Source: Leucoraja ocellata (lineage: Eukaryota). Taken from it: DNA of 64,000 bases. The stretch spans positions 372,001-436,000 of the forward strand of contig JAWMAR010000647.1 in NCBI GenBank assembly GCA_036785375.1. Direction: 5' to 3'. The first letter of the stretch is position 1. Every line of letters starts with the position of its first letter. This document shows positions 17,418-18,554 of the stretch, piece by piece. A program made the position numbers and the translations under genes. The notes under the pieces were generated by a model that saw only the letters and a list, made by a program, of their open reading frames with translations, had not been told where the DNA came from and searched no databases.

Positions 17418-17528
17418 ACATGAATCCAATCAAGCTATTAAACAAGTACAACAGGTGGTGCAAAGTTAAAAAACTACCAAAGTGCAGAATATAGTGTTAT
17501 CGTTTTACGGCATTCCAGTTAGAATTAC

Positions 17529-17582
17529 GGGTTGGGAGATTGCAACCTTCACGTGGTCCACCCTGTTTCGACTAATGCAATC
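17529..17582 (+). ncRNA. Predicted minimal HDV/CPEB3-like self-cleaving ribozyme (copy 1)
   Basis: P1 GGGTTGG/CCACCCT (one mismatch), P2 GATTGCA/TGCAATC, P3 ACC/GGT, L3 TTCACGT, P1.1 G17565, mini-P4 T-TTCG-A, J4/2 CTAA with candidate catalytic C17572. Confidence 0.8.
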
Positions 17583-17656
17583 AACCCGACGTACACAAAC
17601 AAAGGATCAAATAGAACAAGTTGACCTACAACTTTAGGCTGACATACACAAGAAGA
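17529..17656 (+). mobile_element. Short non-autonomous retroelement with ribozyme head and (GAA)n tail, copy 1
   Basis: Homologous to 21479-21617 and 55804-55944. TSD agttagaattac (17517-17528) / agttagaatcac (17657-17668). Confidence 0.85.
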
Positions 17657-18554
17657 AGTTAGAATCACAGAGTGGTTGCAGCTATGGGGTATCATCACCA
17701 CCTGCTGTGCCACAGTGCTGACCATACCATTCCTTCCTGATCAGATTCTATCCCCCATTAACCCAAAGGCTTCTCAAACTACAGTCAGGAAAGAGTTTAG
17801 TTTAGTTTAGTTTAGTTTATTGTCAACGTGTACTGAAAAGCTTTTGTTGCGTGGAAACTGATCTAAGCACTTGCCCTGTTTGCTCCGTTGATGCTTAGTT
17901 ATATGTGCTCCTGAGCCATGTTGAACCTCTGCTGATTTGCATGACTAATATGTTCAGTCAAGAGTGTTTTATTGTCATACGTCCCGAAATGGAACAATGA
18001 AAATCTTACTTGCAACAGCACAACAGATATGTAAANNNNNNNNNNNNNNNNNNNNNNNNNNNNNNNNNNNNNNNNNNNNNNNNNNNNNNNNNNNNNNNNN
18101 NNNNNNNNNNNNNNNNNNNNNNNNNNNNNNNNNNNNNNNNNNNNNNNNNNNNNNNNNNNNNNNNNNNNNNNNNNNNNNNNNNNNNNNNNNNNNNNNNNNN
18201 NNNNNNNNNNNNNNNNNNNNNNNNNNNNNNNNNNNNNNNNNNNNNNNNNGGAGTCCCCACATTTTGGGAACTAGTTGCGGCCTCAATATGGTCACCGCAA
18301 AATTTTCAACATGTTGAAAATGTTTCTGCGACCAAAAATCGACAATCCTGTAGTCGTAGGTGCAGTGGTAGTGTGGTCGCCATGTCCTTGTAGGTAGTCG
18401 TAGGTAGTTTTAGTTAATCGCCTTTGCTGACCAGGCATTTTCATTGGCTCATTGGGGGAAAAAAACGTTTGCCGACATCAACCTCCCGAAATCTAGTGCC
18501 TCGTGAAAACATATTTTTCCTCCCAGAAAGCGAGGAGCAATAACCAACAACCAA

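Follow-up and report, generated by a model that had tools for sequence, protein, structure and literature searches.

The 64,000-nucleotide stretch of Leucoraja ocellata DNA analyzed here—the window, positions 372,001 to 436,000 of the forward strand of contig JAWMAR010000647.1 in assembly GCA_036785375.1—carries a short dispersed retroelement, the first 54 nt of which can be drawn as an HDV-type ribozyme. This raises the question of where such a head comes from, which machinery mobilizes so small a unit (only 139 nt, with a range of 130–140 nt), and what the head might do in that process. Three copies of this mini element lie in the window, all on the + strand, and none further was found there. 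The preliminary description had reported a common start point, a (GAA)n terminus and flanking target-site duplications (TSDs) for each of them, all of which hold at the three positions; over their full length the copies are 80–88% alike.

17529–17657, + strand: copy 1
17517–17528, + strand: left TSD of copy 1, 12 nt, its final base at position −1 of G1
17657–17668, + strand: right TSD of copy 1, 12 nt, one mismatch to the left TSD
21479–21617, + strand: copy 2, with G37 changed to C; end-pairing arms at 21538–21547 and 21592–21601, 9/10 pairs
21468–21479 / 21618–21629, + strand: TSD of copy 2, 11–12 nt, one mismatch
55804–55944, + strand: copy 3, with G1 and L3 altered; situated between two TGFBR3-like exons

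The left TSD of copy 1 indeed stops at 17528, just before G1, as had been stated; the TSD of copy 3 measures 11 nt with two mismatches. Copy 2 interrupts another retroelement, itself common, within its 3′ tail (window 21400–21660); that retroelement is found without the insertion in contigs of related runs, whose joints skip about 21467–21616. In the contigs of four runs bearing three organism labels, the mini element is present with loose ends at 21479, which in contigs say nothing about RNA starts.

For copy 1, the predicted head consists of the following parts.

17529–17582, + strand: HDV-type fold, 54 nt, a predicted nested double pseudoknot
17529–17535 with 17558–17564, + strand: P1, 6/7 pairs
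17538–17544 with 17576–17582, + strand: P2, 7/7 pairs
17545–17547 with 17555–17557, + strand: P3, 3 bp
17548–17554, + strand: L3, 7 nt
G17565 with C17550, + strand: P1.1, a predicted pair
Between G37-U38 and J4/2, + strand: 5-nt linker replacing P4
17572–17575, + strand: J4/2 with the putative catalytic C17572 (C44)

The sole pair lost in copy 1 is a T·C mismatch in P1 (17532/17561), and the G1·U36 wobble, L3, the C22-G37 pair and the C of J4/2 are all in place. Copies 2 and 3 fall short of this set: copy 2 has lost the P1.1 pair through the change of G37 to C, and in copy 3, G1 is gone and two L3 bases are changed. P1, P2, P3, L3, G37 and J4/2 are located where the preliminary description had placed them; its P4, read as T-TTCG-A, counts one T twice, and in the modeled fold P4 is absent or 1 bp—an absence that may slow cleavage. 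The L3 sequence UUCACGU, the GU after P1 and the CGAA of J4/2, which had been likened to the mammalian CPEB3 ribozyme, are confirmed as matching human CPEB3 by the primer sequences in PMC5984629.

A purpose-written HDV descriptor, a search that had been proposed beforehand, has a single match in the window, at 17529. A control set of 1,585 random 64-kb windows with matching dinucleotide composition gave 83 matches, 14 of them no longer than 58 nt, which corresponds to ∼0.009 chance matches of this small size per window. The Rfam HDV and CPEB3 models, suggested alongside, left the mini head unrecognized: no HDV-like match was returned for the window or for four genomic mini copies at any threshold tried, nor for the head of the parent LINE introduced below. 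The single-strand folding energy is unremarkable (z 0.69), as is to be expected of a pseudoknot. As modeled, the head hence has the structural hallmarks of an HDV-like ribozyme and lacks the Rfam match.

The element is not confined to this locus. In the 3.44-Gb genome, a 25-nt head motif has 5,056 exact matches and a 19-nt junction motif 9,703, with 0 for either reversed control. On contig 1, 45 loci are shared between the head and junction lists (75 and 100 entries), and this overlap gives an estimate of 11,000–16,000 copies, assembly duplicates included; an unbiased 200-kb sample contained 3. Six of 30 sampled loci repeated another locus and one further pair appears duplicated. Numerous loci, on contig 1 and on other contigs, are present twice at 95–99% identity, frequently in inverted orientation and separated by 0.1–2 Mb; this points to uncollapsed haplotypes or to segmental duplication and inflates the copy counts. 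Two clusters on contig 1 (19261570–19274592 and 19413133–19428638), with mini copies ∼2 kb apart and identical flanks, owe their spread to a larger unit duplicated in tandem rather than to retrotransposition.

The 5′ ends of the family are uniform rather than random, a property that the preliminary description had singled out for inspection. Drawing 30 copies on the junction alone left 24 after removal of duplicates, 23 of which have the full head, and 22 of these 23 are flanked by TSDs of 8–16 nt. The TSD boundary lies at G1 in 13 copies and is shifted by one base downstream in 8, in which a G leaves it ambiguous; of the remaining two, one has its TSD end at −3 and the other lacks a clear TSD. 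The same start point is seen in 47 head-motif matches. Mean divergence from the column majority amounts to 5.5%, and 11 of the 24 junction-sampled copies are intact for every fold feature tested. A 79-nt version (L034:2457–2535 on the − strand, and L223; the two loci have common flanks and thus represent one insertion) consists of the ribozyme and a ∼25-nt tail within a perfect 12-nt TSD, its deletion taking out the 5′ arm and the loop of the end stem described below.

Within an alignment of 43 mini copies, the ribozyme pairs are retained in 35–43 copies per position (G1·U36 in 35, C22-G37 in 41), and C44 in 22 of the 23 full-head copies. Two subfamilies can be told apart by CGAA versus CUAA in J4/2 and by a difference at nt 61. 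Two-sided compensatory changes in ribozyme pairs were not found among these 43 copies, only one-sided ones (for example U5-G32 to U5-A32), so that covariation has to be read across families.

Where the head originates follows from a search with a pattern linking the tail of the mini element to an upstream Cys-Pro codon pair, followed by walking in the 5′ direction. It yielded LINE 3′ ends whose final ∼40 nt are those of the mini element, and at least 25 5′-truncated LINE copies terminate in the mini-element tail. Four LINE copies bear the head (L266, L270, L282, and L273) and share nt 1–77 of the mini element at 85–87% identity; L266 and L270—a single insertion represented twice, with both ends, a length of 2.77 kb and a 12-nt TSD—also share its 3′ part (nt 96/100–139), and L282 and L273 the 5′ end. 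An autonomous LINE with both ends, which the preliminary description had proposed to look for, is thereby at hand. Its head adopts the same P4-less fold, of the CUAA type, and ORF remnants start ∼130 nt after G1. All parent copies seen are broken, and the family may be extinct. Against this parent, copy 1 divides into three parts.

17529–17603, + strand: LINE 5′-derived part, 69/75 identical to L282
17604–17620, + strand: junction, specific to the mini element; by eye, the bases before it seem to be repeated here as a short tandem duplication
17621–17657, + strand: LINE 3′-derived part with ORF stop, 3′ UTR and (GAA)n tail, 34/37 identical to the LINE copy L286

By sequence comparison, the mini element is an internally deleted, non-coding bipartite LINE derivative, in which the first 77 and the last ∼40 bases are joined: it has the extreme 5′ and 3′ ends of a LINE and no ORF, and the unit was amplified with TSDs and the tail of the parent. 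The earlier view of a non-autonomous retroelement starting exactly at G1 of an HDV-type fold stands with this; the idea that the head is a module in place of a tRNA does not, since the head is the parent LINE's own 5′ end.

In five pieces of the parent, Pfam recognizes an APE endonuclease and RVT_1, and no match to RNase H was obtained in them. A Cys/His C-terminus and a short 3′ UTR are present as in the Vingi-type families of this genome, and full-length relatives from sea urchin, lancelet, aphids and other animals encode single proteins of ∼960–1000 aa with no RNase H family listed. In an RT tree of 28 rows (one excluded as too short), comprising only unnamed relatives and an unrelated outgroup, the parent groups with the genome's Vingi-type families, at 42–52% RT identity. 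We infer that the parent is a Vingi-type LINE, a name resting on the domain layout and on what we take to be Vingi traits. In PMC13708176, Vingi is described as compact, with a single ORF, an APE and no RNase H. A route to the parent via Pfam PF14529 was rejected, as it gave an unrelated two-ORF LINE family; the Vingi-type families V1–V6 were ruled out as parents of the mini element, none of them sharing its ends. The genome further holds a young two-ORF LINE family (L051–L080), presumably Nimb/I-like, with 1,268-aa open frames, a zinc-knuckle ORF1 and many near-intact copies.

A protein search of the genome uncovered seven further Vingi-type families, and each of them starts with an HDV-type fold of different helix sequences, the copies of V2b and V6 being degraded. 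Across eight Vingi families, the helix sequences vary with pairing maintained: P1 and P2 differ throughout, and P3 is GCG/CGC, ACC/GGT or GCC/GGC. C44, G1·U36, C22-G37 and the A in J4/2 are common to the mini element, its parent and sister families with different helices. The covariation that had been suggested as a check is therefore absent within the mini family and present across these eight.

Some of the sister heads are recognized by RF00622 and RF02682. On RF00622, the mammalian CPEB3 ribozyme (cut-off 35 bits), V1 heads reach 50–61 bits at 4/4 V1 loci and V2b 46–50 bits, above the cut-off; V3 (24.7 bits) and V6 (22.6 bits) stay under it, V4 matches another HDV family below its cut-off, and V2, V5, the parent and the mini element have no Rfam match. 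A full-length element with a 13-nt TSD on a metagenome contig (L358) scores 55.6 bits, and its first 37 nt show, counted by eye, 3 differences from human CPEB3 as given by the PMC5984629 primers (34/37, over P1–P3). Among metagenome loci with enough upstream DNA, a head matching the HDV descriptor was found at 4 of 52 (three distinct elements) and no descriptor match at the other 48, many of which are probably truncated. V1, V2b and L358 fall into one clade of the RT tree with support 92/95—below the tool's starred level—and the parent of the mini element is on a different branch. A full-length V1 copy with a CPEB3-like head (L047:4318 to L048:650) was met in a random 200-kb sample, and V1 copies are 95–99% alike in protein, marking a young family.

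Because P1–P3 vary freely in sister families, the near identity of the V1, V2b and L358 heads to CPEB3 points to descent rather than to the fold by itself, and on these sequences the CPEB3 ribozyme likely originated as a Vingi head. The mini element itself resembles the CPEB3 ribozyme in L3 UUCACGU, the G1·U wobble, the GU after P1, the CGAA linker and a sense intronic position, but differs from it in the sequences of P1, P2 and P3 and has no RF00622 score at all; it is another Vingi clade (V1, V2b, L358) whose heads are closely related to CPEB3. According to PMC8233481, the CPEB3 ribozyme is not found outside mammals and has no outgroup, and domestication of intronic ribozymes from mobile elements has been suggested in general terms (PMC7761336). 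Our literature search returned no paper naming Vingi as ribozyme bearing or as donor of CPEB3, and Repbase, Dfam, patents or supplements may list the element or the ribozymes. drz-Spur-3, considered as a possible published counterpart of CPEB3, was rejected because PMC5984629 gives it a different sequence.

Behind the ribozyme, a second feature recurs. In the mini element, nt 60–69 are complementary to nt 114–123, six of the ten bases being palindromic; at each position, 28–40 of the 43 copies retain the majority pair. Copy 2 folds into this stem (z −2.2); part of the stem's 3′ arm is missing from copy 1. The same layout with other sequences is found in V1 (9 bp), V2 (7), V4 (8) and, bulged, in V2b; V3 and V6 show little end pairing. 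When 30-nt windows following P2 and preceding the tail are paired, own-family duplexes rank 6 and 15 of 40,320 family permutations in two copy sets, with a range of 1–39 over three window sizes; shifted-window controls rank 14,059, 30,072 and 610 of 40,320. The windows had been fixed after the stems were seen by eye. Out of sample, L400 beats its shuffles (3/1,000), and L358 (101/1,000) and L338 (179/1,000) rank lower. From these sequence comparisons, pairing of the ends across Vingi families is somewhat better than an even bet. In V5 (L155/L154), a second occurrence of the 7-nt 5′ strand of P2 lies in the 3′ UTR, which could thereby compete for the P2 3′ strand rather than pair behind the ribozyme.

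The copies of the window share their strand with a host gene that was recovered by a splice-site scan and resembles TGFBR3 (betaglycan).

29208–29345, + strand: TGFBR3 (betaglycan)-like exon, residues 83–127 of chain 7lbg_D
45386–45568, + strand: TGFBR3-like exon, residues 130–189
45883–46053, + strand: TGFBR3-like exon, residues 190–245, bounds approximate
60960–61154, + strand: TGFBR3-like exon, residues 298–356

Pfam gave no match for the 150 longest of 251 unmasked ORFs of the window, and neither the window nor the 80 kb preceding it yielded the upstream TGFBR3 exons. All three copies are in sense orientation to this gene, 3/3 not being significant. Copy 3 is intronic, flanked by two TGFBR3-like exons; copies 1 and 2, which lie 11.6 and 7.6 kb upstream of the exon beginning at residue 83, are probably intronic as well. 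The 80 kb upstream of the window contain one mini copy, on the opposite strand. The exon at 29208 is flanked by an inverted pair of 1.4-kb segments of CR1-like LINE sequence (24813–26177 and 33931–35307; 92–99% identity, 7.7 kb apart), and a tandem ∼96-nt repeat at 28106–28312 carries a motif resembling a hammerhead, which lies on the − strand and hence antisense to the host gene.

How might such an element move? Read-through Pol II transcripts, for example from sense intronic copies, would supply the RNA, and the 54-nt head would cleave it 5′ of G1 through C44 and Mg2+. The protein of the parent LINE would then prime at the shared tail and insert the RNA by target-primed reverse transcription, leaving a TSD of ∼12 nt. 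By pairing with the 3′ UTR, the bases just after the ribozyme would form a stem that would hold the RNA ends together and would let the reverse transcriptase skip the middle, giving rise to miniatures. What is observed are both ends, the endonuclease and RT domains of the parent, TSDs of ∼12 nt at G1, the tail, the copy number, and the pairs and conserved residues of the fold. That the mini element is a Vingi-type miniature, its RNA likely cut from longer host transcripts by the predicted ribozyme and likely copied back by the parent LINE protein, is, in our judgment, very probable. In vitro self-cleavage has been reported for NARTco and TvSIDER1, two miniatures of the Ingi clade (PMC4035085).

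An internal promoter with its +1 at G1 would likewise produce a uniform start there. The 77-nt head might then be mainly an internal Pol II promoter, and its P4-less fold a weak or vestigial ribozyme or else a structure for 5′ protection or protein binding. The equivalent 77 nt of L1Tc, Pr77, are ribozyme and internal promoter at once (PMC4035085, PMC3383444), several SIDER heads with adequate predicted folds failed to cleave (PMC4035085), and the mini head bears neither a P4 nor an Rfam match. However, C44, G1·U36, C22-G37 and the A of J4/2 are kept across families whose helices differ, P4-less HDV-like ribozymes are active (PMC10879173), and a promoter role is compatible with cleavage; a head that is mainly a promoter is thus improbable, though it is the strongest competitor to the cleavage model. 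The box-like runs of the head, a partial A-box-like run near nt 5–15 and TTCGA at nt 39–43 as read from the sequence and judged against what we take to be the A and B box consensus, could further be seen as the degenerate tRNA-like head of an ordinary Pol III SINE with a coincidental HDV fold. Yet the same head opens a 2.8-kb LINE, ARAGORN finds no tRNA in the window, and the low chance frequency of so small a descriptor match speaks against coincidence, which makes this the least credible of the readings considered.

As to the mobilizer, the preliminary description had favored an RTE-like LINE. The short trinucleotide tail agrees with an element of the RTE clade, whose members give rise to bipartite derivatives and bear HDV-like ribozymes (PMC5786205). 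But the LINE with both ends joins the Vingi-type families of this genome—in a tree of unnamed relatives and an unrelated outgroup—and the shared tail belongs to a Vingi-type family, so that an RTE mobilizer is largely refuted and to be regarded as highly unlikely.

With the parent LINE as mobilizer and its own 5′ end as ribozyme, the mini element would operate like NARTc or an R2 SIDE. The derivatives NARTc of L1Tc, RIME of ingi, those of Vingi-1_EE and the R2 SIDEs likewise have the ends of their parents only, no ORF and an intact 5′ end (PMC5786205, PMC4035085), and the heads of NARTco and SIDE are HDV-like ribozymes, as is predicted for the mini head. Unlike these, the mini element combines a vertebrate host, a Vingi parent, a 139-nt unit and a P4-less head. 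Bipartite LINEs as a kind are already known; the unusual part is the P4-less 54-nt head. The ribozyme-bearing clades listed in PMC5786205 are R1, R2 and R4, together with RTE, Ingi, and LOA, with Vingi absent from that list. For the fold itself, drz-Mtgn and theta ribozymes share the P4-less nested double pseudoknot of ∼50–55 nt with the catalytic C first in J4/2; ∼99% of them are found in phages, theta beside tRNAs (PMC10879173), whereas the mini fold stands at the 5′ end of a vertebrate retrotransposon present thousands of times.

As an overall reading, to which we lend fair but not strong confidence, the Vingi clade begins with HDV-like ribozymes and mammalian CPEB3 is a domesticated Vingi head; the mini element would be the smallest member, a P4-less ribozyme at more than 10,000 vertebrate loci, thousands of them intact and some sense-intronic, and the ends of Vingi RNA would pair by a family-specific stem. 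The Vingi heads give the CPEB3 ribozyme an outgroup and a likely donor. Minimal P4-less HDV-like ribozymes are known almost only from phages and metagenomes, and the mini element provides a predicted one with a defined role in a vertebrate element, in thousands of natural variants. With roughly 11 of 24 copies apparently intact, those lying sense in introns could cleave host pre-mRNAs, as in the CPEB3 setting. Vingi is under development for gene insertion with templates that carry both UTRs (PMC13708176), and a 5′ ribozyme together with an end-to-end stem would bear directly on the design of such templates. Why only some clades make bipartite elements is left open in PMC5786205; the end stem, if true, would explain the two-ended miniatures of the Vingi clade.
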